The notes beneath the pieces are model-generated. The model saw nothing but the letters and a program-made list of their open reading frames with translations. It was not told the origin of the DNA and searched no databases. A program made the translations under genes and the position numbers. Shown here in pieces: positions 324 through 27,676 of a stretch of 29,440 nucleotides of DNA (its first letter is position 1; each line of letters starts with the position of its first letter). The stretch is from an uncultured virus (IMG/VR IMGVR_UViG_3300020048_000074) (lineage: Duplodnaviria; Heunggongvirae; Uroviricota; Caudoviricetes): positions 62,001-91,440 of the IMG/VR virus record IMGVR_UViG_3300020048_000074; one strand, given 5' to 3'.

Positions 324-1217
324 TCATTTCGATTCTGCCTCCGCAAGAAACGCTTTATATCCTTTAGAAAGCTCCATCCTAAATATAAAATTGTTTCGCG
401 TTTTTTTACTCTTTATATGGCTGATAATAAACGCTTTCGCAAATGCATACGGTATCTCGATATCCACCTTAGCGGTTGCTCGTGTTCTCTCAGCTACATT
501 TCGTATTTGTTTTACATGGATGGTAAGCGAAGTACCATTATATTTCAATTTCATGTCTTCAGCCTTCGATGGCATTACCCACGCTTTCTGAGAATGCACC
601 TGACCTTCAATCAAAGTAGCTGTTTTGTTTTTAAGCATACGCATGACATTATCAGATTTAAGCGAGCCGGTTACTGACCATCCACCCATAAGCTTTGTCG
701 CTGCTAACACGGCACTCGGTTTAAGCAGCGGAAGTTTTTCAGAAACCTTTTCTACTTTCGTATATTCTTTTCCCGTGATATGACTTTTAACTTTCATAGT
801 AACCCGGGGCTTTGCACTTCCTGTCGTATACTGGTCCCTCAGCTTAACCAGAGCAGTTCCTATCAAATGAAGCGCGGCATGCTTCTCTCTCGGTACCCCG
901 GGGCCTTTGTCTATGTGATCGAATACTTCTTTGAATATGTTATGCGCAGTGTCGGGCTTGCTTGTCTTTATTTTTTCAACCAACGAATTGAAACCGGTCA
1001 CTCCATGCTTTTCCAGAATGGTGGAAATCTCCCCGCCCAAATTGGTAGTCATCGCGTGGTCAAAATAATTCTGAGCAGTTACTTCCGTTTTATCAAGCAC
1101 CTGTCTTTCACGATGGACAATGACCCACTTGTGCCCGGTCTTTTTCCATTGCCGCTTGTCTTGGTGAGTCCGTATCTCACCTTCCATGGCAGCTTTATGC
1201 TTCAGAAACAGAATCAT
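324..1217 (-). CDS. Basic hypothetical protein, putative virion cargo with N-terminal tag
   Basis: Start reassigned to MILFLKHKAA (GGAGG RBS at about 1224-1228). N-terminal GEIRTHQDKRQWKKTGHKWV resembles tags in neighbouring proteins. Confidence 0.8.
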   Translation of the reverse strand: MILFLKHKAAMEGEIRTHQDKRQWKKTGHKWVIVHRERQVLDKTEVTAQNYFDHAMTTNLGGEISTILEKHGVTGFNSLVEKIKTSKPDTAHNIFKEVFDHIDKGPGVPREKHAALHLIGTALVKLRDQYTTGSAKPRVTMKVKSHITGKEYTKVEKVSEKLPLLKPSAVLAATKLMGGWSVTGSLKSDNVMRMLKNKTATLIEGQVHSQKAWVMPSKAEDMKLKYNGTSLTIHVKQIRNVAERTRATAKVDIEIPYAFAKAFIISHIKSKKTRNNFIFRMELSKGYKAFLAEAESK

Positions 1218-3045
1218 AGGCGTCCTCCGGCTCCCTACCCATCGGGTAATCAAACGACCGAGCTATGGCTTCGATCCTGTCTTCATCTGAACTGAATTTC
1301 GATTTCAGCATATCAACAAGTTCCATTTTATTCGGTATGACATGCACATGCGTATACCGAGAATTCGTAGGGTGATCGATACTTACCACTTTAAGCGAAG
1401 GTGCAACCAATAGAAACTCTCGCTCATCCGCGTAGGCGGCTATATTATATTTATGTATAAGCTGTTCGGTACCATGATCCTCAGAGCCTTCTATCATGCT
1501 ATCAACGTCAACTCCAATAACTTTCGTCTCAGGTGTAAGATTTTCTTGATCTATAATAAAAATAGCGCCTGCCGAGTATTCTTCACCAACACTCGATGCT
1601 TTGGAAAAAGAAGCCATACCAAGCGGAATCACATCACCCACTTCACAGTTCATCCATTCCGTATTTTTTGATCCACGATACAGCTTATCGTCTTCAAGAA
1701 AATCGTACTCTGTAAAATGCCCATCGACTATAGTTTCTATCAATGAATCCCCTGACCACGTTCCCCATTCTTTTCCGTCTTCCTTCATTTGAAAATAATC
1801 CCGAGCTTTTTTTCTGTTTCCTTTAACCTCACCCCCAACCCAACGGCCAAGCAGGTGAAGCTGAATCCCATCCCATTCATTTCCACTGACGTCTTTCATG
1901 GACGTTGTTTCTTCAATCTCGTCTTGACGTTTAAGCATTATTTCGGTTACCGCTTCAACCGCCTCGTTAAGCGACACGTTATTTACAAATGCATATCCTA
2001 TTATTTCGTCGTCATCAAACGAAACCTCTTCAGAATGACTTGATACTCCGTGACCCTCATAATGTATAGGCCCTTTTTCAAGATGGTCCTCATGCTCATC
2101 AGCCCACTTTTCAACTTCACTTGCGGACGGATAGGTATGCCCACCAAACACTGAACTTTTTATAGCATCCCGGATATAACTAACAGCGGCATACCGGGAA
2201 ACAACTTCGTCCCAGTCAAGATTAAGGCGTATCGCGTCATCAAGCATGTGGTCTACTTGTTTGTCGCCTTCTACGAAAATCCTACGCGCCATGTCTGAAG
2301 TCATGTCTATAAACTCTTGCTTGTTTTTAAACAGCCGGTCTTCCAACCATTTTGAAATCTCAGCATGAGTCCTGTCTAATGCAAGAAACGCATTGAACTT
2401 ATCAATGCCCTCGTCTCCAAACACATCCTTTAACAGGGTATCGGTCGCCTCGTTATAATCTGTTATTTTTTTTAAGTTATTGTTTATCTCTATTTTTGTT
2501 TTCCATTTGTCATGCCTGCCTATCTTATCTGCTTGTTCAATAATCCTGTCAATTTTTTCCTGAGCCATAGGGTCCATTTTATGATGCATATCCGCTATAG
2601 CCTCTTCAGGGGTAACCGCAGGGCTTGATACCGCGATTCCAGTTGTCATCTCGTAGACCCGATAGTCTGGAAGCATTTCGATGTCATGGAGCGACGATCC
2701 CTGCAACTCGTTGCATACGAAAAACTTATGGCCACGCGATTCAAACGAGCTGTGCACATTTTCATCGGGCACCCGTACTGCCATGTTTACTCCACCAGCC
2801 TCCAACCTAACGTTTACATAAGTACCATCCGGCTGATTGTATGCCTCATGATTTTTCGACACCTTATCTTTTTTCTTTTTGTCCTGCTTAGGCTCATCCA
2901 CCTTTTTGTTTTTCTTGGCCATGTACTCATCGTAGTCCACTTTCACATAAAAGGTTTGAGTAAACGTTTTACCTTTTTTGGTTACCTGCTTTTCAACGGG
3001 AACCAAAGTGCTTATATTCTTTTTACCCTTTATAAACAAAAGCAT
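1195..3045 (-). CDS. ADP-ribosyltransferase (R-S-E class, VIP2/Alt-like C-terminal domain)
   Basis: Start MLLFIKG after GAGGT RBS. C-terminal motifs LYRG ... ASFS ... DEREFLL appear in the order of the R-S-ExE catalytic triad. Confidence 0.75.
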   Translation of the reverse strand: MLLFIKGKKNISTLVPVEKQVTKKGKTFTQTFYVKVDYDEYMAKKNKKVDEPKQDKKKKDKVSKNHEAYNQPDGTYVNVRLEAGGVNMAVRVPDENVHSSFESRGHKFFVCNELQGSSLHDIEMLPDYRVYEMTTGIAVSSPAVTPEEAIADMHHKMDPMAQEKIDRIIEQADKIGRHDKWKTKIEINNNLKKITDYNEATDTLLKDVFGDEGIDKFNAFLALDRTHAEISKWLEDRLFKNKQEFIDMTSDMARRIFVEGDKQVDHMLDDAIRLNLDWDEVVSRYAAVSYIRDAIKSSVFGGHTYPSASEVEKWADEHEDHLEKGPIHYEGHGVSSHSEEVSFDDDEIIGYAFVNNVSLNEAVEAVTEIMLKRQDEIEETTSMKDVSGNEWDGIQLHLLGRWVGGEVKGNRKKARDYFQMKEDGKEWGTWSGDSLIETIVDGHFTEYDFLEDDKLYRGSKNTEWMNCEVGDVIPLGMASFSKASSVGEEYSAGAIFIIDQENLTPETKVIGVDVDSMIEGSEDHGTEQLIHKYNIAAYADEREFLLVAPSLKVVSIDHPTNSRYTHVHVIPNKMELVDMLKSKFSSDEDRIEAIARSFDYPMGREPEDAYDSVSEA

Positions 3046-3055
3046 ACGGTGTACC

Positions 3056-3784
3056 TCACTGATTGCAGCTATCGTGCATACCGACAATTTCTTCATCGAG
3101 ATCGCCATTAAGCTGCGGAAGCGTAAGCATACCGTCTTCGATGGTGATCTGGAATATAAAATACAAATGTTCAAGGCATGCGGCACACCTTGACTGCCAG
3201 CTTGGATACAGCCTATCAGCCAACACGTTGGTTACATTCTCAATAACCAGTTTAGCGTGGGGCAGGTGCCACACATTGAACTTTTTCATATACGACTTTG
3301 GTACGCCGCATATCTCGATATCGTTGTTTAACGCTATTTTCAAGTTTATAGATTTCGATTCGTACTCGCGCACCAATACCTGAATGATATCGGGAAGCGC
3401 CCCTATACTTTCCCCATTCGTTTTTTCCAAACGGGCAACGTAATCGGTTATTCCTTTTTTAAATACGCTGAACTTCAACCGTAAAAATGTCTCGTTGATA
3501 AGCCCCTTGTCCGATCCATCAAAGTAAAAGAATCCCGGACTTTCGGCAGACGACATGAATTGAAAAAACCTATGATGCAGCAATGATGGCCATGTGCCTT
3601 CAATCGCTGCATCCGCGTTTTCAAAATCAAAAGTTGTCCCGTCTTTAGACGTTATTTTTTTGGGCTTCAGTTTTAAAAGCTTTGATACCAGTACCACAAC
3701 CACGGCAAGGAAAGCCAAAAAAACCATCAACCATATTACGTCTTGAGCTTTTGCGCTTGACGGAAGCATCAACCAATTATTCAT
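3056..3784 (-). CDS. Membrane-anchored hypothetical protein
   Basis: One N-terminal hydrophobic helix (VIWLMVFLAFLAVVVVLV) followed by a basic patch; the start overlaps the upstream gene. Confidence 0.75.
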   Translation of the reverse strand: MNNWLMLPSSAKAQDVIWLMVFLAFLAVVVVLVSKLLKLKPKKITSKDGTTFDFENADAAIEGTWPSLLHHRFFQFMSSAESPGFFYFDGSDKGLINETFLRLKFSVFKKGITDYVARLEKTNGESIGALPDIIQVLVREYESKSINLKIALNNDIEICGVPKSYMKKFNVWHLPHAKLVIENVTNVLADRLYPSWQSRCAACLEHLYFIFQITIEDGMLTLPQLNGDLDEEIVGMHDSCNQ

Positions 3785-4088
3785 GCCCTTCCTCTTTTCG
3801 CTTCCTTTTTATTTCGGCAGCCAATTGGACTACGATGGACAACGCTATGGCCACCCATAAAAGGATATCCAGAATATTTTCAATTTCTATTTTCCATGCA
3901 CTGGTAGCAACTTGTGTGTACACCACCTCTATAGTATACACTATGTACGCCGATCCAAGTAGAATAGCAATCACGCACTGAAACACATCGGCCAATCTTT
4001 TATGCTTATAGGTTACCCATTTATAAGCACTGAACATCGCGCTTATCATAAAAGTTAAGGCTATAATAAAATACATTATCGGACGCAT
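3777..4088 (-). CDS. Small 3-TM membrane protein (holin-like topology)
   Basis: Start MRPIMYF after GGGGG RBS; three hydrophobic segments and a basic C-terminus (KRKRK). Confidence 0.7.
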   Translation of the reverse strand: MRPIMYFIIALTFMISAMFSAYKWVTYKHKRLADVFQCVIAILLGSAYIVYTIEVVYTQVATSAWKIEIENILDILLWVAIALSIVVQLAAEIKRKRKEEGHE

Positions 4089-4089
4089 A

Positions 4090-4476
4090 CTAAACCCCCA
4101 GCCCATGGTAACCCTTTTCGTTCGGCGCTCGGGGGATACGGTCAAGCTCCCCGGGTATCATGTGAATCTTTGCTGCGGTGATTGACTCTTCAGCCATCGA
4201 CCGAGCCTTTTCAAACGTGTCGCGCTCTCGAAGCTTCATGGAGTATCGGTGCTTCAGGTCCACCCCTTTTTCATCCATAGTTGCAGGATTCTCACTGACA
4301 TAAGGGGCCAACCGGGTACGAAGCGCTTTCAACTCATCGTTGACCCGGCGTATTCCTTCGTCAGTGGCTTCAAGAATTCCTTCCTGCTCCTTTATAATCA
4401 TGAGCGAATATGATTCACTCCGCGCACGCTCCTTATCGAGCTTGGCCATGTCGCCGTCAAGCTGACTGTTTTTCAT
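4090..4476 (-). CDS. Hypothetical coiled-coil protein
   Basis: Start MKNSQLD after GGAGG RBS, overlapping the end of the giant gene; charged, helical composition. Confidence 0.75.
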   Translation of the reverse strand: MKNSQLDGDMAKLDKERARSESYSLMIIKEQEGILEATDEGIRRVNDELKALRTRLAPYVSENPATMDEKGVDLKHRYSMKLRERDTFEKARSMAEESITAAKIHMIPGELDRIPRAPNEKGYHGLGV

Positions 4477-7400
4477 TACGAGCCTCCGCTTCATATTTAT
4501 TGAGCATCCCAAGGAACCCTGTCTCATCCAGTGCGTCAACGTCACGTGGATTGCCCATGATCTCTTGCTCTTTCCGCTTGGTTTCCATGATGTCTTCACC
4601 GCGCATATCAAACGGATTCGTACCGCTCAGTACATACGCATGGGTATCACGATCCTGACCCTTCCTGAACACACGGGCGTTTCGCTGCTGGAAAGCCGCG
4701 TAGCTGTCCGGGATATCCAAATGGAATGTAACCGTGCCACCGTGCTGAAGGTTGTGCCCGGATTCCAGCGACTTGGTTCCAACGATAAAGCGAAGCGGAT
4801 CATCCGGATCGTTGAATCGCTTCTTTAACTTGGCAATGGCTGCATTGGATGATCCTTCACCCTGACCTTGAATCACGCCAACGCATCCCGGCCCGAATTC
4901 CGCTTCAAGGCGTTCCACTGCGGTCTTCACGGCATGGATAACCGGGGACCCGGGCTTCGACAGATGGATAACCGCTTTTTCCCCGGGGTGGATGTTTTTC
5001 ATGATGTCCACCATCTTGTCGAGCTTGGCATTCTGCGTCGAATTGCCATTGGTCACGATCGCGTAGTTTCTGGAATCGCGCTGCGCCGACGCTCCCGGCT
5101 TCTTGGCGTCCCGGTCCATTCTATACTGACTCTCGCTTGCAGCATACCGCTTTCGTTGCTCAGGGGTAAGCGCCAAGCGCTCAGTGCTCACGGTGTTTTC
5201 AATCGGCAACGCGTTTTTCTGAGTGTATACCCATTCAGATATCTCTTTCCGGAAAGCATCGTTGGCAGCATCGGCAAACATTCCCGTTCCCTGATTCAAG
5301 CCATCGTACCGACTGTTGAACTCGCTCATTGAACCAAGCGTATGGTTGGGATCAATGAAGTTGATTTTCCGGTACAACTCGCTTTTCTTATTCTTGATGT
5401 TCGTGCCTGACATGGCGATCTTGAGCGGGATGTTCGAGATGTCCATGAGTGACTTGAACCGCCCAGCCTGTCCGGTGCCCGCTGTCATTTCGTGAATCTC
5501 GTCAACCACGATCATGTCGTAGCCTGCCTCTTTAATCATGGCAGCGTCTTCACGAAGCGCGTCCTGCGATATGATGTGAATGCCGTCTTGGTTATGCCGA
5601 GCCAACCGGTCCGCTCTCGAAGTGGTTTCCGTTGAACTATGAACAAGTTTGGCCATCTCCGGTTCAAGGAACTTATTTGACTGCTTATGGAAGTCACCAC
5701 GGGTCTTGGCCGGGGTTACCACAAGAATCTTTTTCGCTCCCTTGTTGTGCATCGCTTCCATCATGGCCGCGTATGCCATACCGGTTTTACCGATACCTGC
5801 TTCAAAGTCAAGGATGACCGCGCTCTTTTCCATAAAGAAACGCAAACCGGCTTCCTGTGCGGCATCCAACTTTACACCCGGGTTTACACCTGTCGGAAGG
5901 TACCCGTTATTCATCTCATGCCGCTTGATCTTTGCAGTTATCGATTCATCTTTCCGAAGCTGTTCATTACGCGTAAAGAAAGTATCCAACTGATCTTTTC
6001 GTATCTCAAGCACGAGACGCTTGGACCTGCCCTCTTTCAAAGTCTTGATCGAGTACGATCCCTTTGGCAGCCCGGCTTTCTTTGCCTTGTCACGAGCACG
6101 TGTAAGGTCTTTTCCGATATCCACCTGCACCACGTCCCCGGGCGGGTCTTCCAGCGCGTTTATCATAGCCGCTACCACGCGAAGGGAACCAACGGCGGTG
6201 CCAAGCGCCCGCTGCCCGGCAGTAAGCTGCTTCAGGGCATGGCCGTTTGCAGACGCCATGGACAAAATCGCCTCGGCATCATCGGTATCCCGGGCAAGGT
6301 TGCGCAGCTCATCGGCATTCGCAAACCGCCTATCGGATTCCGAGATGGCCTTGGTGACCACTTTTTCGCGTTCCTTGGCCGAATACTCTTCAAGAGCCTT
6401 TCTAACGGTTTCTCCCTTGCCATCGGACTGTAGTTTTATCGTCACGGCACGCACTACCGCTTCCAGCCCGAGGTTTTCTATGGTATCCGTGGAGAAAGTA
6501 GCGCCTGAGCCGTAAATATCGCCTAGCAGCCCGTTTAGAGCTGAAATAGAGCCTTGGTCTACGTGGGTTTGGATAGAATCGGACTGCGCATTGAGCCGAT
6601 CGTACAACTGCATGTTTTTCTGAGTCTCTATTTGCTGCTCTATCTCTGCCAGAATGTCTTCAGGAATGCTTTCGGAGTCACCTGAGTACGTGTCACCCAC
6701 TCGAAGCGTGACATGGGAATCCGCTTGGCCCTTCCCGATCGCTTTCATGGCCTTCTTGAACTCTTTCCGGGCCGTAAGTATCTGGATCGCCTTGTCCTTG
6801 TCCAAAAGCTTGCGCAATTCCGGTTTCATGTTCGGGTCGCCGGGCGCGTAGTCCTTCATGAGCGTATCGAGCGCTGCTTTTTCCAAATCCTTGGTCTGCT
6901 CCACGACTGCCTTTTTAACCAGCTCATTCGTTTTCTCTTCAATCGCCGCATCCGTCTCTTCAGGCGTCTTGTTTTTGACCTTGCCCTCTACCATGGCCTT
7001 GGCCTTGTCCGCGATAGCATCCATCTCGGCAGCGCTTATCTGGGAACGAAGCTCTTCCTGCGTGACACCCAAAATATTCGTTACCTTGTTGGTATACTCT
7101 TCCCGGGCAATTTTCTTGGCAGACACTTCAGCTTTTCGATTTGACACCTGCTCAGCCATCTCTTCTTTGGATAATTCCCGGAGGTCTTCGTTTCGTTTCT
7201 TCTCGACCTTCTTACGCTTCTCTGCGTAATCTTCCCGGGAAAGCACCTTGTCTACCTTCAGGTGATTCAGCTTGCCGCCCGCACCGCCGACCACGACATA
7301 CCCACCGTCCGAGGTTCCCTGCAATAGAACCTTGGCTCCACGGATTGTTACCCAACGCATATTTCGGCCTTTTATATCAGCCGCCGTATAATGCATCTTG

Positions 7401-10400: not shown

Positions 10401-12118
10401 GTGTCGAGTATACTAAACATACCTTCCTGATCTTTTATTGGTGTTACCTGATATACTTCTTTCGACTTAATTTTTACAGCCTCGGGTTTACCCTTTACAC
10501 CCGCAGCGAACATTCCAGCAACCTCACTAGCATCAGTAAGCGGTTCCAACTTGACAACACGCATTTTGGTTACACCAAGCGCTTTCAGTTTTTTCAACAC
10601 CTCTTCTTTATTACTGTCGTTCAAATCAACCTTGTCGCTTATCACGAGGTCTTCGTAATCCTTCCCCGGAGCGACACCCCAAATGACATACTGGTTACCT
10701 TTTTTTACCGATACACTCTTCGACGGACTTTCGGAAGTTTTCGCTTTTCTGTTTTCCCTAAATGAGTCGCCCTCTGAGCGTAATAACCCATTTAACTTGT
10801 TATACCTTCGAGCATATTCTTGTAATAAAATCCCTTTTGCCTCTTCACCATATTTTTTTTCGTGAAGTGTAATTGCAGCCATAAGCTCTTTGTTGTCGTA
10901 TGGCTGAACAGTATGCTCATTGTTATCAAAAGTTTTCTCTGCAATGTTTTCAGCTACAGTCTTAATTTGTTTTTTGTCTTTTGAAGATATACCGACAACG
11001 GCAGCCTTACCTTTTGGAACATCGCGCCAGTCGCCCTCAGCTACTTTCTTACGCCCCTTAGACACCGTGCCTACTGGCATCTTTTTTGCCTTTTCCAAAT
11101 TCTTGGATTCCATCTCAGCTAAATGGGTATAGTATTCCGGGTCTTCCTGAAGGTGATCGAGCGCGATCTGCTTGGCAACCTCTTTGTCGTCTGTATGCTC
11201 CATCTCAGTATGGATTCCCATGGCAAGTTGTGATGGTCGAATCTTTTTCGTACTCTTGCCTACTTGGTACTTGCCCTTGTGCTTTAAGCTCTCAGCAAGC
11301 TTGGAAGCTTTCTCTATTTTTAATGCTGCCGCTAATTCTCTACGCGGCTGCGCGGTTATTCCATCATATAGGCTTACCACTTGAAGTTTCCCACCTTTTA
11401 AACCAACACCGATGATGACGCCCTGTTGCCAATCGCCACCGGCTTCAAAATACGCCACGCTTGAAGTGAGGCGAATCATATCACAATTTTCTAGGTCCAC
11501 GCCTTTTGGAAAACCTTCAAGCTCTTTTAAATTGTATCTATTCTTGCCTTCCAATAGACCTGAAGCATTAAGAGCAGCTACTAGCGCTTTTCTATCCTTA
11601 TTCTGCTCTGCGGTGTACACTACAGGTTTAGACTTCAGCTTTGAAAACGTAGGGTCAAGCTCAGACGACTTTTTCAGTTTCATACCTACCCGATCCTTCA
11701 ACATTGTTTTGAACGTGGCCATATCGTACACCGACATGCTCTGGAAAAACCCCGGGGAATCGTACTGTCGGCAATACGCGTGCTTTGCTTCCAACGCGTT
11801 ATTATATCCTAACATAACCTTGTCTTCGTCGTAAGCCTTTGTCTTCGGGTCCTGTTGATGAATCACGAACACTTTATCAGAAAACTGGTTTGGTCCGAGG
11901 TAACAATCGACGTGATCTCCATCGGTACCTTCAGTGGCTCGAATATACCCGTAGGCCATGTGCATGAACGTTCTCCATACATGGCCGTCTTCGGACGTAC
12001 CCTGCCGAATGCTGCCGCGCTCGTTCTCAATAGAAACGGGAAGACCCTGATAAGTGGTCTTCCCTTGCAGCTTTCGACTTCGCCAGTCTACCGCGTTCGT
12101 AATTATTCCAAGTTTCAT
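4457..12118 (-). CDS. 2553-aa polyvalent protein: iPyPase domain, DUF5661-like, SH3/KOW-like, zeta-toxin P-loop kinase, PI3K/HipA-like kinase, SWI2/SNF2 helicase
   Basis: SIEN..GS.R..YGYIR.TEG.DGDHVD..YDEDKVMLG (iPyPase); MGIHTEMEHT..IALDHL.EDP.YY; GGRGGSGKS..DADEIK..VHEESS (zeta); EY.AN.IY..LGVPVP..DALLGNWD..RIDNGGSL (kinase fold); GIGKT, DEIH, SGT, GHNLQ, QRNARVFRKGQ (SF2). Confidence 0.9.
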   Translation of the reverse strand: MKLGIITNAVDWRSRKLQGKTTYQGLPVSIENERGSIRQGTSEDGHVWRTFMHMAYGYIRATEGTDGDHVDCYLGPNQFSDKVFVIHQQDPKTKAYDEDKVMLGYNNALEAKHAYCRQYDSPGFFQSMSVYDMATFKTMLKDRVGMKLKKSSELDPTFSKLKSKPVVYTAEQNKDRKALVAALNASGLLEGKNRYNLKELEGFPKGVDLENCDMIRLTSSVAYFEAGGDWQQGVIIGVGLKGGKLQVVSLYDGITAQPRRELAAALKIEKASKLAESLKHKGKYQVGKSTKKIRPSQLAMGIHTEMEHTDDKEVAKQIALDHLQEDPEYYTHLAEMESKNLEKAKKMPVGTVSKGRKKVAEGDWRDVPKGKAAVVGISSKDKKQIKTVAENIAEKTFDNNEHTVQPYDNKELMAAITLHEKKYGEEAKGILLQEYARRYNKLNGLLRSEGDSFRENRKAKTSESPSKSVSVKKGNQYVIWGVAPGKDYEDLVISDKVDLNDSNKEEVLKKLKALGVTKMRVVKLEPLTDASEVAGMFAAGVKGKPEAVKIKSKEVYQVTPIKDQEGMFSILDTDTGKTVKMYGQRGVDAFIDRLKEMKKAGFSDLQEYVKHKNTLYAERIKKEDDVKLMIEQKKEDNFNTTKTGLSVYVDMGKINKLSPMVRGRVINALRKQYNHNNKLMSLRDIIDSGEYSEFAEVQVPQVVFNRTKYNKMDNKQQVEYDKKMETMKVDYVLRRRDPKGYAITLSIPKLVYEVLEASKPKGIKKASDILYDLEKAKALPEGTRRVYGGRKVKKQGGKWVADTDGKQPAADEPDPKKRGAAAPDSTKRNKKDPEDVRGSKSGYGTHNIEVGDTLEFKGKDGDTIKGKVVAEGQKGASVDIGNNNIRKVEWNKVTGFSGEGKKTPVSSAPEGSSTEYVEPASFKADDWAAKMDDPAITKDSILDKAEEAVPGTRNRVDAAEARLAHIEQTIHKYRISGEGAGAVYDEDRTRLHEDIIRSVIPPEKFLAAKPAKGEKPVLIMLGGRGGSGKSWFKGQVYDPEKTVVLDADEIKGMLKEYEGWNAFQVHEESSDILEKVMSIAQSYGLNVVVDATMKTPRSAVGTAQRFLNSDYSLECHYMHCPRKIAAERALSRFMGKSGRYVPVDVILGNTKNEQSFEMVREMADSWSFRDSSGGPPPKLISGEGKGRFMEKSLRRKYLSELFKAMTEKPKAEPKDEKARENANSYDMYDFREPSDGDPFNGMPNLKKDFDKLVSGKDKEAVKGKVEKKVAAKEEAKTEEIEKAMATKYIKKVWRNGRWIYTYPDNGATRNPRQLPDHKVLKNLGGTTGGAMLLELPGGDKKVLKYSTGSAHLKDEYTANRIYEILGVPVPHVQLKEGPKGLGQLADYIEGTPMGELDSETRKKAVESLKAGFVADALLGNWDVLGLAEDNIIWDGNKAWRIDNGGSLRYRAQGQPKGEKFEGSVSEIQSMRDPYKGAGKRAYSTVSDSDVDAQIQRVLDNKQIILNAIDDLALRRVMESRINSLGARVQKSIGDIKIPDMTLLKSDIGDWYLCDHGMMTRFYWFHSLEKATGAKMHYTAADIKGRNMRWVTIRGAKVLLQGTSDGGYVVVGGAGGKLNHLKVDKVLSREDYAEKRKKVEKKRNEDLRELSKEEMAEQVSNRKAEVSAKKIAREEYTNKVTNILGVTQEELRSQISAAEMDAIADKAKAMVEGKVKNKTPEETDAAIEEKTNELVKKAVVEQTKDLEKAALDTLMKDYAPGDPNMKPELRKLLDKDKAIQILTARKEFKKAMKAIGKGQADSHVTLRVGDTYSGDSESIPEDILAEIEQQIETQKNMQLYDRLNAQSDSIQTHVDQGSISALNGLLGDIYGSGATFSTDTIENLGLEAVVRAVTIKLQSDGKGETVRKALEEYSAKEREKVVTKAISESDRRFANADELRNLARDTDDAEAILSMASANGHALKQLTAGQRALGTAVGSLRVVAAMINALEDPPGDVVQVDIGKDLTRARDKAKKAGLPKGSYSIKTLKEGRSKRLVLEIRKDQLDTFFTRNEQLRKDESITAKIKRHEMNNGYLPTGVNPGVKLDAAQEAGLRFFMEKSAVILDFEAGIGKTGMAYAAMMEAMHNKGAKKILVVTPAKTRGDFHKQSNKFLEPEMAKLVHSSTETTSRADRLARHNQDGIHIISQDALREDAAMIKEAGYDMIVVDEIHEMTAGTGQAGRFKSLMDISNIPLKIAMSGTNIKNKKSELYRKINFIDPNHTLGSMSEFNSRYDGLNQGTGMFADAANDAFRKEISEWVYTQKNALPIENTVSTERLALTPEQRKRYAASESQYRMDRDAKKPGASAQRDSRNYAIVTNGNSTQNAKLDKMVDIMKNIHPGEKAVIHLSKPGSPVIHAVKTAVERLEAEFGPGCVGVIQGQGEGSSNAAIAKLKKRFNDPDDPLRFIVGTKSLESGHNLQHGGTVTFHLDIPDSYAAFQQRNARVFRKGQDRDTHAYVLSGTNPFDMRGEDIMETKRKEQEIMGNPRDVDALDETGFLGMLNKYEAEARNEKQSA

Positions 12119-12137
12119 GGCATCCCCTATGCGTGTT

Positions 12138-13025
12138 TCACAACCAGCTTTTTTTGGACTTCACAAGAATGATCGGCCTACTGGCAAACAGCTTGCTGAA
12201 TAAAGTACCGATGGATTTTGCTAAATCTGAAAGCGACATGCAAAACTTTATGTTTTCGCCCGTGGACAGCGGCATCTTGGTATAGAAATCCTTGGCATCG
12301 GGAACTATATCGTAGCCGGTTCCCGCCATGGTTGCCGTGCCTGCGTCCTCTCCCGTGGTCTTTATCATCTCCGCTTTTCCCTTGGTGCAAAATACAATCG
12401 CGTCTTGATGATACATTTTACCAATGGCCATCATGTTCGCTCGGTCGGCATCATGTGCCATTACCATGAAGCTCTCTTCAGGATTCACGTACTTGCCCTT
12501 GCACTGCGTAAAAATATAACCTTCGTCTTTCAACGTAGCGACGAGTTGGTCATGCCTTTTTGCAATCTGGGCATCGGTCATTTTCATGTCCTCTTCATTT
12601 TCCGGATTACGTCCGGCACTCATGAGAGAGAACGTGGTTTTCGTAAGCAGGATATCCAAATCGCGTTTGGTCTGTATGGTCTTCTCGCGCCCCATGCCCT
12701 TTGGCCTTCGAGCGTAATGCTGCATCAAACGCTTAACTTCTTTTTCGGTTACACCCTTCAAGGTGCCCGTATGCGCGGACTGCACCTGCTTCTTTTCGGT
12801 AGACTGCTTCTCGGCTTCAGGCTCGGCCTTCGATTCTTTCTTTCCTATAACAAGTTTATTGGAAGCTTGTTTCTGCCCGGTGCCCTCGGCCTCAGCAGCG
12901 CCCGGCTGCCTGTATTTTTTAGGCTGGGCGTACACGTACTCCCACTCGCCCTTCGATCCCTTATAGCGCCTCAAATACTTGTGAGTCATGGCCTTGAGCA
13001 TTTCACTGGGTTTAAGTAATTTCAT
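12138..13025 (-). CDS. DUF3293-like domain protein with N-terminal tag
   Basis: Start MKLLKPS after GAGGGG. Pattern FSLMSAGRNP..G.Y..PEESF..YHQDAIVF; N-terminal KYLRRYKGSKGEWEYVY. Confidence 0.7.
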   Translation of the reverse strand: MKLLKPSEMLKAMTHKYLRRYKGSKGEWEYVYAQPKKYRQPGAAEAEGTGQKQASNKLVIGKKESKAEPEAEKQSTEKKQVQSAHTGTLKGVTEKEVKRLMQHYARRPKGMGREKTIQTKRDLDILLTKTTFSLMSAGRNPENEEDMKMTDAQIAKRHDQLVATLKDEGYIFTQCKGKYVNPEESFMVMAHDADRANMMAIGKMYHQDAIVFCTKGKAEMIKTTGEDAGTATMAGTGYDIVPDAKDFYTKMPLSTGENIKFCMSLSDLAKSIGTLFSKLFASRPIILVKSKKSWL

Positions 13026-13599
13026 CCGGTCCCCTCTTCCCATCGTAATCTTTATAGTATGCAACTCTTTCGGAGTGCCAACCGATCAACGAGACAAACT
13101 GCCCCGGTACCATTCCATTCTTATAGTCTTCAGGAAATAAATCAAACTGTGCCTTCATCATTACCCGATCCACAAACGAGGCAGATGCCACCCCATACAA
13201 ATTGCAATGGAACGGGACCCAACCAATTTTCTTCCAGAACCATCGCGTATACCAAATGAATAAAAGTACAGGTATGCCCTGTACCTGCTTAGGCTCTAAA
13301 TACTGGTGATACGAACTTAACGCCTCTTCAATTCTTTCAAGCCTATAACTCGGCGCGTAATTCGGTGCCATGCAAAATGACGGGGAAGGAATGGCCGGGT
13401 CCAACGCCGAGGTAACCCGTATTCCGCTTACCAACTTCTTTTTATTATTTTCCCAGATAGCGTGCTCGTACAGGTACCCTTTAAAATAAAGTCCAACGTG
13501 CGTGTATGCTGACCCGGTGAAATAAACGATAGCCTTGTTTAGGATATCCAATATTTTATTGCCGCTCTTTGCGTAGCGCCACACGGGTATCGATAACAT
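13012..13599 (-). CDS. Permuted papain-like (YiiX/NlpC-P60) fold protein; catalytic Cys apparently replaced
   Basis: FTGSAYTHVGLY..LYEH..GIRV at the N-terminus; C-terminal ASASFV..DLFP..VPGQF aligns by eye to the CSELV..TPGDL consensus. Confidence 0.6.
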   Translation of the reverse strand: MLSIPVWRYAKSGNKILDILNKAIVYFTGSAYTHVGLYFKGYLYEHAIWENNKKKLVSGIRVTSALDPAIPSPSFCMAPNYAPSYRLERIEEALSSYHQYLEPKQVQGIPVLLFIWYTRWFWKKIGWVPFHCNLYGVASASFVDRVMMKAQFDLFPEDYKNGMVPGQFVSLIGWHSERVAYYKDYDGKRGPDEIT

Positions 13600-13991
13600 T
13601 ACTTTTTAACCCATATACACAAGGCCATACTAGACTTTCTTAATTTCTTTTTAGCCTTCAGTGACTTGCCACCTGACTCTATGCCACGCAGCCTATCGTA
13701 GTATGCTTTTGACATTCCATGAGACGAATTAAGCGCCTTCGATGCTTGCTGCTTGGTTACGCTTTTCCAGTCTATCTTGCCGCCATTAAAACCCATGGCG
13801 TGGCTTATCTCAGAATAACCCCCGTCTGTTTTTTTCTTAGGCGCTGCGTCACTCTGTTTAGACTCGCTGGTTTCGCTTTCGCTTTCCGCTTTGACTTGAG
13901 TTGGTTGCTTAATTTTAACCCACTTACCTTCAGCCATCTTGGTGTAACCACGTGACACTGTGCCTATAGGCATCTTCCTAGACTTTTCCAT
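13599..13991 (-). CDS. Basic hypothetical protein with N-terminal tag
   Basis: Start MEKSRKMPIGTVSRG after AAGGGG RBS; very Lys-rich. Confidence 0.8.
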   Translation of the reverse strand: MEKSRKMPIGTVSRGYTKMAEGKWVKIKQPTQVKAESESETSESKQSDAAPKKKTDGGYSEISHAMGFNGGKIDWKSVTKQQASKALNSSHGMSKAYYDRLRGIESGGKSLKAKKKLRKSSMALCIWVKK

Positions 13992-13992
13992 T

Positions 13993-14124
13993 TTAATCCC
14001 CTTCGTCGTTTGGGTCAAACCCAAGTATCGCCACAACGTCTTGCGGAGTTGATTCAAGCTCATGATCGTCATCAAGAGATACATCCGTCTTCCACGGAAC
14101 GTTTTCTACTTTTCCGATATACAC
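13993..14124 (-). CDS. 43-aa acidic peptide (MYIGKVENVPWKTDVSLDDDHELESTPQDVVAILGFDPNDEGD)
   Basis: Below the ORF-track cutoff. GTG start 1 nt after the topoisomerase stop; it fills the gap exactly up to the next ATG. Confidence 0.65.
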   Translation of the reverse strand: MYIGKVENVPWKTDVSLDDDHELESTPQDVVAILGFDPNDEGD

Positions 14125-14125
14125 T

Positions 14126-15019
14126 TCAGGCTGCTTCAATTTTGCGCCTCCACTTTTCAAAAATTGCTGGATTGATATACGACGACAGCGCTACCTTGCG
14201 CGTGTTCCCCAGTTTCTCGGCCACCGCGTCGGCAACCTTCAATACTGCCTTCTTGTACTGGGCCATGTTCTCAGGCTGCCCGACTTTCTTCATTGCCAGC
14301 ATCGCAGCATGCGTGGCTACGTGCGTCCTGAAATCCTTGCTCTGGAATCCGGCCCCGTTGCCAAGCGCTTTGGTATACAACAAGAGGCGGTCCCCGGTTA
14401 TTCCAAACACCTTGCCGGTATCCCCCGCAAGCTTCTTTCGCTTAATCATCATCTTTGCCACTTCAGGGGAAGTAATAGGGATAGACAAGTGCACGCCCTT
14501 CTTGCCCACAAAATCCAAACGGACGACCCCGCCCTTTACGAGCACGTGCCGTCCTTCAAGCGTGGTAGCACCAAATGCATCCACGGTCGCATCCGTTTCT
14601 TTTTCGGACCCCGGGCGTATCCCCGTGTCTATGATAAGCGCGAGGCATTCCGCTTCCACTTTGCCCTTGCGCATATTCTTTGCGTTCTCAGCCACAAGAT
14701 CATCGTATGAACGGTTCAATGAGTTGATCCTTGAAAACTTTTCCTTTGCTGAAGACGTTACGTGTTTGGGGTTATACAGGTATTGCGTCCTGCCCTTGCC
14801 ATCCACGCCGGTAACCATGATCCGGGAATTCGGGTCTTTCGCGTATTGGACATTCACCCATGCCGGGGGAACGGTAACCGCTTCCTTCACTCTCTTTGGA
14901 AGGTTGTCACGAGACGCCACCGCGATCCACTTCCCTTCGGCAATCTTTTTAGACTTACCGCTCGGGCTTACTGATCCAACGGGCCGCTTGGCTCCCTTCA
15001 TGAGAATGACGAATCTCAC
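14126..15019 (-). CDS. DNA topoisomerase IB (bacterial/poxviral type)
   Basis: PPAW..V..G.DGKGRTQYLY, GIRPG (R), FGATTL, FVGKKGV (K), SKDFRT (R), LGNT..V..SSYINP (catalytic Tyr). Confidence 0.95.
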   Translation of the reverse strand: MRFVILMKGAKRPVGSVSPSGKSKKIAEGKWIAVASRDNLPKRVKEAVTVPPAWVNVQYAKDPNSRIMVTGVDGKGRTQYLYNPKHVTSSAKEKFSRINSLNRSYDDLVAENAKNMRKGKVEAECLALIIDTGIRPGSEKETDATVDAFGATTLEGRHVLVKGGVVRLDFVGKKGVHLSIPITSPEVAKMMIKRKKLAGDTGKVFGITGDRLLLYTKALGNGAGFQSKDFRTHVATHAAMLAMKKVGQPENMAQYKKAVLKVADAVAEKLGNTRKVALSSYINPAIFEKWRRKIEAA

Positions 15020-15405
15020 TTTGCCGCCCCACGTTTCTTTTTCAGCGCTCTCGGCTCTCGCTTCTTTGGTTCACCAAACTTGGCATTTGCCCATGCGTTC
15101 ACCCGGTCGTACAGACTGAAGCCCACCAAAACATAAAACACGGAAGCCGCGCATACATAAATAAGCACGCGCCAATAAACCTCAAGCTTCCCGGACACTA
15201 AGCCTTTATCGTAAATAAGCGTGGACCAATAGGCAACCCCGATCATTGCAATAAGCGCCACGACATTCTTGGCTGTGTTGTTGTGCAAGATGCAAAGCAT
15301 GCGTCCCACGATGTAAACAAAACCTAACGTCAAGAAAGCAATAAAAGCCCCTCGCAGGGCTACGTCTATAATGAATGGCGCGTAACTTGCAATAAGCTCT
15401 TTCAT
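15016..15405 (-). CDS. 3-TM membrane protein
   Basis: Three hydrophobic helices and a basic C-tail; ATGA overlap with the topoisomerase gene. Confidence 0.75.
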   Translation of the reverse strand: MKELIASYAPFIIDVALRGAFIAFLTLGFVYIVGRMLCILHNNTAKNVVALIAMIGVAYWSTLIYDKGLVSGKLEVYWRVLIYVCAASVFYVLVGFSLYDRVNAWANAKFGEPKKREPRALKKKRGAAK

Positions 15406-15415
15406 TACCAGCCCC

Positions 15416-17023
15416 TTATTCGATCACGATATGAACTCGACGCTCCAAGGCGTCTGTCTTTTCCCGGAATGCTGCCCGGGACTTTTCCATAGGCTCAGCG
15501 TCTACTTGAAAGTCCCCAAACCCATCGCCCTCGGTATCACCGTTGCCGCCGTCAGCAGCAGACTCAGGATCACCACCAGAATCCAGTCCCGCGTCCTCAC
15601 CTTCGCCTCCCATGCCGTCATCCATCCCGCCGCCTTGCTGCTGTTGGGCCTGTTGCTGCTCGGCTGCTTTACCCTGCAAAAATATTTGCACTGCCTGCGG
15701 ATTCAACGGCATCTTGGACCAATCCTCATTGAACGCTGGCAGGTCATCCTCTTTGCGTATCTCGTCAATGGAGCGCCATGCGTTGATCTGCTTGCCTCGA
15801 ACATCCGCTTTCTGGTTCTGATCCTCCACTTCAAGACCGACAAACTTAAAGCGATACTTGTTCGTGACTTTGCGCAACACCTTGTTCACGTGTTGTTCCA
15901 TAAATGAAAGCATGGAAGCAAGCCCGCGTGATTTTGAGTTCTGAATGCGTGTTGTGGTTCCCTGTTCGCCCCATCCACCTGCATTGTCTTCAGAGCGGAT
16001 ACCCATCTCCATGAGGTCTATCGAAAACACCGAGGCTACAATCGAGCTGACAAACGATATTGTCTTATGGTACTCCATATCCTTGTTTGACTGGCCGAGC
16101 GTTTTGAAGTCTATGCCCACGCCATCCTTGCCGGAAGGGAGAATAGGGATCGCCCAGTTGCCACCCGCGCCGCTCATCGCCGCATACCAATAATTCCTGA
16201 TTGAATCGAGCTGCGGCTTGGCTACGTCACCCATAACGGATATGAAGCCTTTCGGCATCTTGTCCTTCACGAGTTGGTCACGTATGTACTGGTATCCAAA
16301 AAGAAGTGTCGTAATTACGTCGATAGCCTGCTCTACCGGGCTGTAACCGTATCCCCGATATTTGATGTCCGACCTTTTGTACTTGTAATCGAATATGATG
16401 TCTTCAGCTTTGAACTCATTGTATATTTTGTCCTCGATGGTCTGCACGTATCGGATGCCCTTGGAAAACGATGATTCATCATCCACCCGGGCAATCGTCG
16501 CTCCGTCCAGTCCCCAGAATGCAACGACCTCACCCCGCCTGTTTCTTTGTATCTCCGTTGCGATCTGATCGATTTCATAAATGTCCCTGACCATCATGGT
16601 AAGGTAATCGGAAAAATCATCCTCACGGTCCGGGTCGAAATTAAATCCGGTCTGCTCAAAGAAAGTGGAAAGCTGCATGACCTCTTCGTCATCCACTTTG
16701 TCCTTCCCATGCTCATGCCGGGTCCGCTGCTCCAATTCAAAAACAAACCCCTTGTCCCCTTCAGTCGTTGCCATCTTGCAAAACGGCAACACGTGGTCCG
16801 TCCGCGTATTGATGATCGCATTTATAATGGGAAGACGTTGTGAGATGTTTCGCAGGGTACGGAAATTAAGCTGAAGCACGCGTTCCCGGATACCCTTAGA
16901 ACCGTGCCATAGCCATGATTGGATTGTTGGATCGACAAGCTGGGTCTGTAATTGCTTTATAGTGGCATCGACGCTTATGAAATTCGGTGCAGCGCCGTGC
17001 TTGGTACTTTTCTTTCGTGCCAT
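15416..17023 (-). CDS. Phage portal protein
   Basis: DQIATEIQRNRRGEVVAFWGLDGATI, GYGYSPVEQA, PKGFI, DMEY, SIDEIRKEDDLP motifs typical of portals (SPO1/Twort-like flavour); AGGAGG RBS. Confidence 0.9.
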   Translation of the reverse strand: MARKKSTKHGAAPNFISVDATIKQLQTQLVDPTIQSWLWHGSKGIRERVLQLNFRTLRNISQRLPIINAIINTRTDHVLPFCKMATTEGDKGFVFELEQRTRHEHGKDKVDDEEVMQLSTFFEQTGFNFDPDREDDFSDYLTMMVRDIYEIDQIATEIQRNRRGEVVAFWGLDGATIARVDDESSFSKGIRYVQTIEDKIYNEFKAEDIIFDYKYKRSDIKYRGYGYSPVEQAIDVITTLLFGYQYIRDQLVKDKMPKGFISVMGDVAKPQLDSIRNYWYAAMSGAGGNWAIPILPSGKDGVGIDFKTLGQSNKDMEYHKTISFVSSIVASVFSIDLMEMGIRSEDNAGGWGEQGTTTRIQNSKSRGLASMLSFMEQHVNKVLRKVTNKYRFKFVGLEVEDQNQKADVRGKQINAWRSIDEIRKEDDLPAFNEDWSKMPLNPQAVQIFLQGKAAEQQQAQQQQGGGMDDGMGGEGEDAGLDSGGDPESAADGGNGDTEGDGFGDFQVDAEPMEKSRAAFREKTDALERRVHIVIE

Positions 17024-23023: not shown

Positions 23024-23034
23024 ATGGCGCGATC

Positions 23035-23661: not shown

Positions 23662-23943
23662 TCACGGTTTTAAAAGCTCCAATCGTTTCACGGTCACTTT
23701 GTACCCATTCTTTTCAAGCCCTTTAGCCGTTTTATTTATTATCGATATAACGTCTTCGTAGCTCTCTTCTTGGTACAATTCGATGATATGGTTTTTCCGG
23801 GCGTCCACCACGGCAGTCTTGGCTTTCTCGTCTAAAATGAAAAAACCGTCCTTGTACAGCTTCGACAGGATAAGACCTTCAGCAACATCCCGATTGATGC
23901 CTTTCTTTTTCTGCCGAAACAGTTTTATCTTGCTTTCACTCAT
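23662..23943 (-). CDS. Hypothetical protein
   Basis: 93-aa ORF tiled with its neighbours. Confidence 0.7.
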   Translation of the reverse strand: MSESKIKLFRQKKKGINRDVAEGLILSKLYKDGFFILDEKAKTAVVDARKNHIIELYQEESYEDVISIINKTAKGLEKNGYKVTVKRLELLKP

Positions 23944-24277: not shown

Positions 24278-24296
24278 GCTACCTCCTGTAAAGCAT

Positions 24297-27610: not shown

Positions 27611-27676
27611 ACAAACCTCCATGGGAAAATCTGGTTTCCCGCAAGAGGCTCTGTTTCCAAAGCCTCCCACGTGAGA

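Follow-up and report, generated by a model that had tools for sequence, protein, structure and literature searches.

A recurring h-x-K-[ASG] motif on head assembly proteins and putative capsid cargo of an uncultured tailed phage: a candidate head-protease site

The portal-MuF gene cluster

The window analysed here is a stretch of 29,440 nucleotides, bases 62001-91440 of a single 91,440-bp contig of an uncultured virus (IMG/VR record IMGVR_UViG_3300020048_000074). It contains a gene cluster that runs from a portal gene to a MuF-like minor head gene and includes a giant polyvalent protein of 2553 residues. A short motif recurs through this cluster, h-x-K-[ASG], where h is L, I, M, F or V (in its strict form, [LM]-x-K-[AS]); a first-pass annotation of the window had proposed that a prohead protease cuts at such sites, and the predicted cut falls after the Lys. 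We find that the motif is enriched and conserved on the candidate cargo proteins, at module junctions of the giant protein, and on the scaffold, capsid protein and head protease of the same phage.

Nearly all genes of the contig lie on the minus strand, and PHROG and Pfam scans of the whole contig found the terminase, DNA polymerase, sheath and baseplate of a contractile-tailed phage, which by its gene content is a myovirus-like tailed phage. In the order of transcription, the portal gene is followed by a membrane open reading frame (ORF), TopoIB, orf161, orf195, orf308 and the 2553-aa protein, then by three small or membrane ORFs, orf663 and orf309, and then, essentially outside the window, by the MuF-like gene, beyond which come two small ORFs, the head maturation protease, the scaffold and the major capsid protein. 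The genes that matter for the argument are the following (window coordinates unless the contig is named).

15416-17023, minus strand: portal protein, 535 aa, first gene of the cluster (Pfam Phage_portal, E 1.7e-20; phrog_12, E 7.4e-45)
15016-15405, minus strand: orf129, a predicted membrane protein of hydrophobic sequence without motif enrichment, probably not cargo
14126-15019, minus strand: type IB topoisomerase (TopoIB), 297 aa, with a GTG start overlapping the upstream stop (Pfam Topoisom_I, E 2.4e-19)
13599-13991, minus strand: orf161, 130 aa from the ATG at 13991, with an M-E-K-S start, a basic hairpin tag (tag A), and a C-terminal LRKS plus hydrophobic strand
13012-13599, minus strand: orf195, a possible permuted papain-like protein (Peptidase_C92 and NlpC-P60-like look-alikes, leads only)
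12138-13025, minus strand: orf308, 295 aa from the ATG at 13025, with a 12-residue leader, a second kind of tag (tag B) and a weak DUF3293 match
4457-12118, minus strand: the 2553-aa polyvalent ("giant") protein (Pfam and PHROG matches; homology blocks)
1195-3045, minus strand: orf663, 616 aa from the ATG at 3045, with a 6-residue leader, a basic tag and, as a lead, a C-terminal ADP-ribosyltransferase (ART)-like domain
324-1217, minus strand: orf309, 297 aa from the ATG at 1217 with GGAGG upstream, a hydrophobic leader and a basic tag
1-95 (contig 59945-62095), minus strand: MuF-like minor head gene, 716 aa, only its 5' end in the window (PHROG match; weak Pfam matches)
contig 58499-59293, outside the window: head maturation protease, 264 aa (phrog_1028, E 3.5e-20)
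contig 57806-58477, outside the window: scaffold, 223 residues
contig 56364-57806, outside the window: major capsid protein (phrog_752, E 2.5e-65)

Enrichment of the motif in the head module

All the tetrapeptides listed by the first-pass annotation are found where it placed them, in the giant protein as well as at the portal C-terminus and in TopoIB, orf161, orf308, orf663 and orf309. Expected counts were taken from residue shuffles (1000 for grouped ORFs). The giant protein contains 28 motifs for 15.4 expected, a count reached by 1 of 1000 shuffles, and 8 of the [LIM]-E-K-[AS] subset for 0.5 expected. Six standalone cargo candidates together have 18 for 11.4 expected (36 shuffles in 1000 reach this count) and five assembly proteins have 30 for 9.2 (no shuffle in 1000). 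No enrichment is seen in the 22 ORFs of window 17.0-29.4 kb (13 for 12.3 expected), nor in the 59 ORFs of genome positions 1-56.3 kb (77 for 68). The shuffle tests thus bear out the expected contrast between the head module and the non-structural ORFs.

When the shuffles are run over 110 genome ORFs, they single out the scaffold, the protease, the giant protein and MuF (7 for 2.6 expected). An SbcC-like protein, an HNH endonuclease, a 75-aa head-module ORF and orf195 are also flagged at 0.01, and the other ORFs lie near expectation. The four membrane or small ORFs of the cluster, orf129 and orf173 among them, show no enrichment (3 sites for 3.3 expected).

The motif on scaffold, capsid protein and protease

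The prohead protease and capsid protein, which the first-pass annotation had suggested looking for, were located together with the scaffold just outside the window, and all three bear the same motif where cleavage is expected. Their sites provide the strongest of the new evidence. The scaffold has 10 sites in its 223 residues (1.2 expected) and the protease 7 (1.4 expected). Among the scaffolds of this phage and of 14 relatives (portal or capsid identity 49-88%), each has 8-13 sites for 1.1-1.7 expected, and in 15 of 15 the count is reached by none of 500 shuffles. Around the scaffold lysines, Leu is 3.6-fold over background at P3 and Ser 4.1-fold at P1'; if the third position of h-x-?-[AS] is left free, Lys alone is enriched, 5.3-fold.

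The capsid protein carries L-Q-K-A at residues 29-32, followed by a Gly-rich stretch, and the protease carries F-A-K-A at 171-174, followed by nearly the same stretch. An L-x-K-A directly precedes a conserved L-x-A-G-x-G stretch in 15 of 15 capsid proteins, and K173 of the protease is invariant in 11 of 11 aligned proteases. The head proteases of T4 and SPN3US cut the scaffold many times and remove propeptides from the N-terminus of the capsid protein and the C-terminus of the protease (PMC9026906, PMC10052503), and it is because the motif marks these same three places that we read h-x-K-[ASG] as the protease site of this clade. The His71 and Ser127 columns of the protease are invariant in 11 sequences, which would fit a Ser/His protease.

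In tblastn alignments spanning 94-99% of its length, the capsid protein shows 27-30% identity to its counterparts in SPO1-like Bacillus phages, with 27-30% identity also to those of a few Pseudomonas and Bordetella myoviruses; relatives closer than the SPO1-like phages are uncultured viral contigs only. The link to SPO1-like phages, which the first-pass annotation had drawn, holds at the sequence level, for the SPO1 scaffold, protease and capsid protein follow the same grammar: scaffold gp3.3 has 11 sites for 1.4 expected, protease gp3.2 has 8 for 1.6, and gp6.1 (capsid) and gp3.2 have matching pairs of site plus following sequence. PDB entry 9vel contains the SPO1 protein Gp6.1. Five of five more distant complete phage records (capsid 30-36% identical) have scaffolds with 6-10 sites for 0.9-1.5 expected and show the capsid/protease site pair too. 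These five were chosen from 80 loci around distant Zeta-cargo genes and searched as whole records; the 10-kb flanks of these loci end before the head genes, and a site-rich ORF lies within 6 kb of MuF in 1 of 37 loci. No measured cut site of SPO1-like or A511-like capsid proteins, and no specificity of an SPO1-type protease, was found in open-access text. Cuts at a Lys-Ser bond are attributed to A511 Cps and HK97 gp5.

Module junctions of the giant protein

The giant protein begins with an InPase, an unknown module and a DUF5661 module, continues with tag A and further unknown modules, tag A and a Zeta-toxin-like kinase, and tag B and a kinase-like module, and ends with a hairpin element and an SNF2 helicase. 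Among the modules named by the first-pass annotation, InPase (residues 18-141), DUF5661 (293-339), Zeta (1010-1149) and the SNF2 helicase (2088-2487) have Pfam matches. The kinase label stays unconfirmed, since this module matches no Pfam, NCBIfam or PDB profile and an AlphaFold2 (AF2) model of residues 1265-1625, built on a 3-row alignment, is too poor for a fold search (mean predicted local distance difference test score, pLDDT, 42.5). The helicase matches phrog_62 (E 3.7e-61), and a match to phrog_10089, "DarB-like", covers the InPase part only. About 12 of the 28 motifs stand at module junctions, the main ones being these.

11666-11677, minus strand: LKKS (residues 148-151) after InPase, in the same column in 4 of 7 homologues
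11306-11317, minus strand: IEKA (268-271) before the DUF5661 module; a standalone DUF5661 homology block starts at 257-258
11003-11098, minus strand: LEKA (341-344) and a tag A copy (345-372; profile independent E-value, i-E, 1.3e-18)
9689-9832, minus strand: double junction, IKKA (763-766) and LEKA (773-776) around a 9-residue peptide, then tag A (777-810; i-E 7.8e-20)
8507-8554, minus strand: double junction that follows the Zeta module, made of MEKS (1189-1192) and LFKA (1201-1204)
8213-8281, minus strand: IEKA (1280-1283) and a tag B hairpin (1284-1302), kept in 3 of 3 homologues
7409-7537, minus strand: triple junction, VQKS (1528), LLKS (1542) and LEKA (1567), around a 14-residue peptide and the 25-residue hairpin element

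The junction sites that were compared are conserved in homologues through substitutions, in line with the first-pass proposal. Lysines 1282, 1530, 1544 and 1569 are kept in 3/3, 4/4, 4/5 and 4/4 homologues, and the substitutions affect P3, P2 and P1' while the pattern stays; the site at 1280, for instance, reads LQKA, LQKS and LEKA in its three homologues. After InPase, the site lies a few residues further on in L009, L012 and P0010, and the sub-family nearest to the window protein likewise has a site at the same place after the Zeta module.

BLAST homology blocks with relatives cover residues 1-166/173, 257-344, 336-467, 1273/1278-2548, 1542-2547 and 1574-2111, with block ends at 342-344 and block starts at 336-341 around the LEKA at 341. 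The claim that sites sit at module boundaries finds support here, 6 of 11 block edges being no more than 10 residues away from a site (2.27 on average in the null, P ~0.011), with edges that were chosen post hoc and include one intein insertion point. Close pairs of sites are also in excess, with 8 gaps of 7-16 residues for 2.7 expected (P 0.002).

Residues 151-1282 were searched against 1.84 billion representative proteins, giving 6692 matches. The nearest cultured matches to the Zeta module come from haloarchaeal tailed viruses and cyanophage PSS2. Matches to the Zeta module start at residues 769-778 of the giant protein, that is at the LEKA site, or further in, and end at 1180-1196, just before MEKS, often at the C-terminus of the matching protein itself. 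Of 21 library proteins with the same Zeta-module start, 20 carry a site at a distance of 35-69 residues upstream of the module (in shuffles, 7.8 on average and 13 at most), usually arranged as a site, a short hydrophobic strand ending in Lys, a small residue and a tag. By its sequence, this arrangement is an internal copy of the leader found on the standalone genes of the cluster, the former Met being sometimes retained. Such copies are expected if polyvalent proteins arise by the fusion of cargo genes with removable leaders.

The modules are also rearranged at these points. InPase and the helicase part are separate proteins in L011, where the helicase part starts at the position of residue 1542; in L012, the LEKA in front of the helicase part is followed by an inserted InPase. 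P0013 passes directly from InPase to DUF5661, two modules being missing, and has tag B before its Zeta module, and P0052 fuses an orf308 homologue to the module found at residues 341-546 of the giant protein, the match starting at the LEKA site. Since modules are clearly exchanged at junctions, one may ask if the junctions are DNA recombination linkers that promote shuffling and have no role at the protein level. However, the junction copies within the window have no more than about 14 identical bases in common (families D3 and D13, 74-90% over 20-35 nt), and on this ground we reject recombination linkers as the main explanation. Moreover, homologues keep the amino-acid pattern while the residues change, which suggests selection on the peptide; we find the linker hypothesis hardly credible.

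Two further observations concern this protein family. Window 8360-8500 (residues ~1205-1255 of the giant protein, after the Zeta module and its sites) encodes an acidic stretch with a conserved aromatic-Asp repeat of the Y-D-x-Y-D-F type that recurs in about 10 distant homologues and may act as a peptide that regulates or inhibits the Zeta-like kinase. The giant protein of L012 (L012:17318-22378) has, at residues ~1140-1498, an insertion of about 360 residues in its helicase, right after the Walker A G-x-G-K, which looks like an intein in the P-loop; the window protein is continuous at this point (blocks 1574-2111 and 2112-2302).

Leaders of the standalone genes

Judged in the context of their start codons, five standalone proteins begin with the motif or with a leader ending in the motif or a one-residue variant of it, followed by a basic tag. 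The TopoIB leader pattern is kept in four homologues from relatives. orf663 starts 11 nt after the upstream stop with the leader M-L-L-F-I-K followed by G, orf309 has a hydrophobic leader ending K-H-K followed by A, the leader of orf308 ends M-L-K-A, and orf161 begins directly with its M-E-K-S. In the portal protein, orf161 and orf308, a site is followed by a short C-terminal hydrophobic strand, which in orf308 ends in L-V-K-S. The portal site and strand are present in 6 of the 9 relatives listed (L005, L006, L008, L009, L011 and L012); the C-terminus of L007, L013 and L014 is different or has K-S without a hydrophobic P3.

14993-15019, minus strand: leader of TopoIB, eight residues that are mostly hydrophobic and finish with L-M-K, before a G; the cut is predicted to follow Lys8
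14912-14992, minus strand: tag A copy on TopoIB, a basic stretch, P-V-G-S and a G-K-W hairpin (profile i-E 3.1e-17)
15479-15490, minus strand: portal MEKS site about 20 residues before the C-terminus, then a terminal hydrophobic strand

A genome-wide scan for a start codon, a hydrophobic run and K-[ASG] gave 11 matches, three of which are true gene starts (TopoIB, orf663 and orf309) and one a possible start at window 27622, the rest being internal or in the wrong frame. Among true gene starts the hydrophobic-leader pattern is thus confined to the cargo cluster, apart from the doubtful case at 27622. The latter would be a start (M-E-V-C-M-S-K-A) of the 395-aa protein with H-E-x-x-H encoded at window 26483-27670, and its likeness to a leader is likely a coincidence.

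The presence of a TopoIB inside the head module, with cargo leader and tag, suggests a topoisomerase that is packaged in the virion. Poxviruses package their type IB topoisomerase. An AF2 model of the protein, on a shallow 5-row alignment, has a mean pLDDT of 61, with residues 1-28 at 30-39.

The ART label that the first-pass annotation gave to orf663 is best kept as a lead. Residues 400-575 (window 1321-1848) have ART look-alikes, T4 ModB for example, by language-model features (0.94-0.95) and by structure (template modelling, TM, score ~0.5), and candidate Arg, Ser-x-Ser and Glu-x-Glu motifs were read by eye; no Pfam, NCBIfam or PDB sequence match was found. If the assignment holds, orf663 parallels Alt of T4.

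For its part, orf195 has neither leader nor tag, and it brings in a second explanation, namely that the sites are cut by another peptidase, either this papain-like protein or a host protease, before packaging or after injection. Its resemblance to Peptidase_C92 and NlpC-P60 proteins by language-model features (0.95-0.96) and predicted structure (TM 0.59-0.67) provides leads in this direction, and polyvalent proteins have been argued to be processed by their own peptidase domains (PMC5512222). From these look-alikes, orf195 may be a papain-like amidase, acting either as a rival processing enzyme or as a cell-wall hydrolase carried as cargo. Nevertheless, it has no sequence-level family match in Pfam or PDB, its fold is more often that of a cell-wall amidase, no peptidase family, MPTase included, was detected in the giant protein by whole-protein or piecewise Pfam scans, and the same motif on scaffold, capsid protein and head protease points to the latter enzyme. 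We therefore consider cutting by another peptidase unlikely.

Basic hairpin tags and the adaptor alternative

Tag A consists of a basic pair, P-[VI]-G-[TS] and then G-K-W, with one copy each on TopoIB and orf161 and two in the giant protein. The shared tag reported by the first-pass annotation is real: a profile made from these four copies finds only those four in the genome, 13 copies in relatives, and 20 unique copies overall. In 19 of 19 anchored unique copies h-x-K-[ASG] stands directly before the tag at a fixed spacing, while P4-P7 vary, being hydrophobic at gene starts and, in the window copies that are internal, polar or helical. Tag B, K-Y-x-[KR]-[KR]...G-x-W-x-Y-x-Y, occurs on orf308 (K-Y-L-R-R...G-E-W-E-Y-V-Y) and before the kinase-like module, and has weak matches to the DNA-binding hairpins Sso7d/Sul7d (E 0.024 and 0.004, far below curated cut-offs). 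Further flavours that recur in distant homologues are carried by orf663 and orf309, that of orf309 resembling their R-W-K-K-T-G flavour. At least four unrelated-looking flavours are preceded by the motif, and tag-less junctions carry it as well. The N-terminal 40 residues of P0014 (leader and tag B) gave no tblastn match in plasmids or phages, probably because of the low-complexity filter.

With these data, chance can be addressed. Lys, Leu and Ala abound in the proteins concerned, and L-x-K-A is a pattern that helices often contain. Composition, which the first-pass annotation had itself raised as an explanation, predicts about 15 of the giant protein's 28 matches; elsewhere in the genome the strict motif exceeds its count in shuffles 1.7-fold, and some matches inside the helicase are not conserved. 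What composition does not predict is the conservation of junction sites through substitutions, the scaffold counts that no shuffle reached in any of the 15 phages, the motif before every anchored tag copy, the 20 Zeta-module proteins with an upstream site, and the absence of any excess in the window's 22 non-structural ORFs. As an observation the motif is confirmed, and its conserved subset is far above chance; for this subset chance is contradicted, and as an account of the whole it appears very improbable to us.

A more substantial alternative is that motif and tag form one uncut adaptor domain, in which the Lys and the small residue are structural or serve in binding, for example in docking on portal, scaffold or DNA; the resemblance to a protease site would then reflect a shared binding to protease or scaffold without cleavage, or would be a coincidence. 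The fixed spacing from the lysine to the core of tag A in all 19 copies fits such a domain, the hydrophobic strand found just before the lysine in many homologues could pair with the hairpin, and the Sso7d/Sul7d matches of tag B go in the same direction. By contrast, the motif precedes several unrelated-looking tags and also stands where there is none, P4-P7 are not conserved, the tag of orf161 has M-E-K-S alone before it, and scaffolds show a 6- to 10-fold enrichment of the identical motif, which also marks the boundary of the capsid propeptide. In the AF2 model the leader and site of TopoIB have no confidently predicted structure, a weak argument given the 5-row alignment. On balance, we regard an uncut adaptor as improbable, albeit as a hypothesis to be taken seriously.

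A cargo set proposed to be packaged and processed

We think it fairly probable that the motif is the site of an SPO1-type head protease, that the genes from portal to MuF encode capsid cargo, and that the giant protein is a polyprotein cut in the prohead. The observed part of this reading consists of the motif statistics, the conservation of the sites, their position at junctions and their presence on the assembly proteins; we infer that the cargo is packaged, cut and delivered into the host, and which functions leader and tag have. The interpretation of the first-pass annotation is supported in part, and well supported as far as sequences can tell: those of its suggested sequence-level tests that were run all favour it.

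In this proposal, whose steps of cargo entry, processing and delivery are modelled on the precedents of T4, P1 and SPN3US, a prohead protease of the SPO1 type would cut after Lys in h-x-K-[ASG], degrading the scaffold, removing a capsid propeptide of ~31 residues and trimming itself. Cargo units would enter the prohead by means of a leader or hydrophobic strand, in the manner of the capsid targeting sequence (CTS) of T4 internal proteins (IPs), and the protease, once active in the prohead, would remove leaders and strands and separate the fused modules. The giant protein would be a fusion of such cargo units in which each junction keeps the motif, often twice around a short peptide, and it would release InPase, DUF5661, Zeta-kinase, kinase-like and helicase modules. 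InPase may itself dock the giant protein at the portal, since Iyer et al. note InPase-portal fusions (PMC5512222).

Each mature unit would start with a retained basic beta-hairpin tag, as the tag lies after the predicted cut and would stay on the mature protein; more speculatively, the tag might hold the unit on packaged DNA or aid its exit. The first-pass annotation had described the cargo as addressed by the tag. The tag itself stands, and the address is perhaps elsewhere, the leader or strand before the cut being a better candidate by analogy with T4.

Several points weigh against this proposal. About half of the 28 matches of the giant protein are due to chance or composition, and the strict form is mildly enriched in the rest of the genome as well (30 for 17.2 expected), so that shuffles understate the natural background and provide a null that is somewhat too kind. 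None of 4 homologues keeps LEKA 1745, VTKA 1921 or MEKS 2096, which lie within the helicase, and no recognisable leader is present at the N-terminus of the giant protein itself. The fixed distance from tag A means that the lysine could be part of the tag and not an independent site, and both AF2 models are too weak to show whether sites are exposed. The protease is assigned from phrog_1028 ("head maturation protease") and gene order; it matches no Pfam peptidase family at E up to 1, including those of T4 gp21 (S77) and HK97 gp4 (S78), and a PDB profile search with it gave no protease. Every lineage checked uses lysine at the site, and hence offers no case of covariation between cargo motif and capsid site. 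Finally, Zeta-kinase polyvalent proteins are reported in conjugative elements, which have no prohead protease (PMC5512222), and some of the 150 library proteins may come from such elements. A complex prediction of protease residues 1-175 (11-row alignment) with TopoIB residues 1-40, which scored 0.01 for a mark of 0.32, has no bearing either way.

A broader proposal is that capsid-addressed polyproteins built by this junction grammar (site, hydrophobic strand, site, hairpin tag) and cut by lysine-specific proteases of the SPO1 type are found across a very large and mostly uncultured group of phages. Standalone genes and fused modules would then be interchangeable, because each unit has its own removable address and its own retained tag, and for this class the model would take the place of the proposed self-processing by metallopeptidase domains. 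We put this forward tentatively, with more doubt than belief. The grammar may extend to haloarchaeal tailed viruses, the source of the nearest cultured matches to the Zeta module.

Other features of the contig

Genes for three predicted membrane proteins stand among the head and cargo genes (window 15016-15405, 3777-4145 and 3056-3784). A 113-aa minus-strand ORF (window -14 to 327; contig 61986-62327) overlaps the annotated start of MuF by about 110 nt; either MuF starts further downstream or one of the two overlapping ORFs is not real. Some relatives align to MuF from residue 3-6. The MuF-like protein (L004:5945-8095) also appears to carry an intein beside a His-Pro-His-Cys / Cys-His-Cys motif. 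It matches Pfam Intein_splicing (E 3.6e-4), TIGR01445 (E 1.4e-3) and Phage_Mu_F (E 0.03), each weakly, and the MuF proteins of L015-L017 and others are about 350 residues shorter, aligning only up to residue 374.

Genes for HNH or other homing-type endonucleases are scattered across the structural and replication modules (contig 53289-53723, 43863-44387, 20505-20969 and 26848-27873), the first of them having 4 motif matches for 0.9 expected, probably by chance. Two runs of 10 N occur in the contig (window 23963-23972 and contig 23024-23033), one of which interrupts an ORF at window 23936-24439.

Significance and comparison with known systems

Leaders that carry a protease site on head cargo are already known from T4, with related systems in phiKZ, SPN3US and P1. 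For polyvalent proteins, the only published processing proposal that we found is self-processing by embedded metallopeptidases (PMC5512222), and no report linking these proteins to cleavage by a prohead protease was found among the matches listed, in open-access text. The rule of a cut after Lys in h-x-K-[ASG] addresses two questions, by what route giant polyvalent proteins reach the inside of the capsid and whether they function whole or as separate enzymes, and it predicts the exact mature N-termini of at least 7 enzyme units and 5 standalone proteins; the same rule is present in the cultured phage SPO1, which opens the specificity of the protease to bench work. If it is true, thousands of "hypothetical" virion cargo proteins could be better annotated, cargo genes would be recognisable by their leaders, and a design principle would be available for protein delivery by phage capsids. 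If the broader proposal is true as well, the rule for loading foreign proteins into capsids and releasing them would be a portable one.

A close functional parallel is T4, where CTS peptides that end in the gp21 site load the IPs and the ART Alt (PMC9026906). IPI-III and Alt have short N-terminal leaders ending in the site of the head protease, the capsid protein and scaffold core carry this site too, an ADP-ribosyltransferase is among the cargo (here an ART-like lead), and cargo sets vary among related phages (PMC9026906). In the present phage, leaders of 6-12 residues ending in the head-protease site are found on TopoIB, orf308, orf663 and orf309, with M-E-K-S alone on orf161, and in relatives too; the same site lies at the capsid propeptide boundary and is repeated in the scaffold, in 15 of 15 phages each. 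The cut differs, since T4 cuts after Glu in L/I-x-E and the cut predicted here is after Lys (PMC9026906). The protease here is of another family than gp21 (phrog_1028, SPO1-like head module), and, unlike in T4, many cargo units are fused in one protein of 2553 residues with internal sites. No conserved basic tag is known to follow the cut in T4 cargo, whereas one follows the predicted cut here.

The head proteases gp175 of phiKZ and gp245 of SPN3US provide a second parallel, with one motif on the capsid protein, the portal, the protease propeptide and ejected internal proteins, and with propeptides that are cut at several sites (PMC10052503). SPN3US gp245 cuts at A-x-E, including in its own C-terminal propeptide; besides this different motif, its substrates are described as separate proteins with long propeptides, and not as multi-enzyme fusions cut at every junction (PMC10052503). 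In P1, the first 30 residues of DarB are a capsid address, and this giant (250-kDa) helicase-containing anti-defence protein is encoded beside portal and protease genes and has an N-terminal loading signal, as cargo here would have (PMC9024508). However, the P1 capsid protein is cut after Glu120, unlike the cut after Lys predicted here (PMC9024508), and DarB is a helicase/methylase, whereas an SNF2 helicase and no methylase was detected in the giant protein of the window.

Among polyvalent proteins, processing has been proposed to rely on embedded zincin-like metallopeptidase (MPTase) domains (Iyer et al. 2017, PMC5512222). The likeness to the giant protein is the union of InPase, Zeta-like kinase and SNF2 helicase in one protein whose gene lies in the midst of virion genes and which is predicted to accompany the DNA; the difference is that MPTase, a hub domain although not a universal one, was not detected in it by Pfam scans. 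The main text of PMC5512222 has no occurrence of "linker", "SH3", "Sso7d" or "packaging signal", and the passages searched in it say nothing on junction motifs or tags. By domain content the giant protein belongs with this class: a single ORF, located between portal and MuF, encodes InPase, DUF5661, Zeta_toxin and SNF2/Helicase_C domains.

Finally, the head module itself compares with that of SPO1. Here the phage belongs to a lineage distant from the SPO1-like (Herelleviridae-type) phages, with a 91-kb genome and close relatives that are all uncultured, and in SPO1 the protease directly follows the portal, with no cargo cluster between them in the stretch inspected. The two share, however, a homologous capsid protein and protease, the order protease, scaffold, capsid protein, and h-x-K-[SA] in all three of these proteins.

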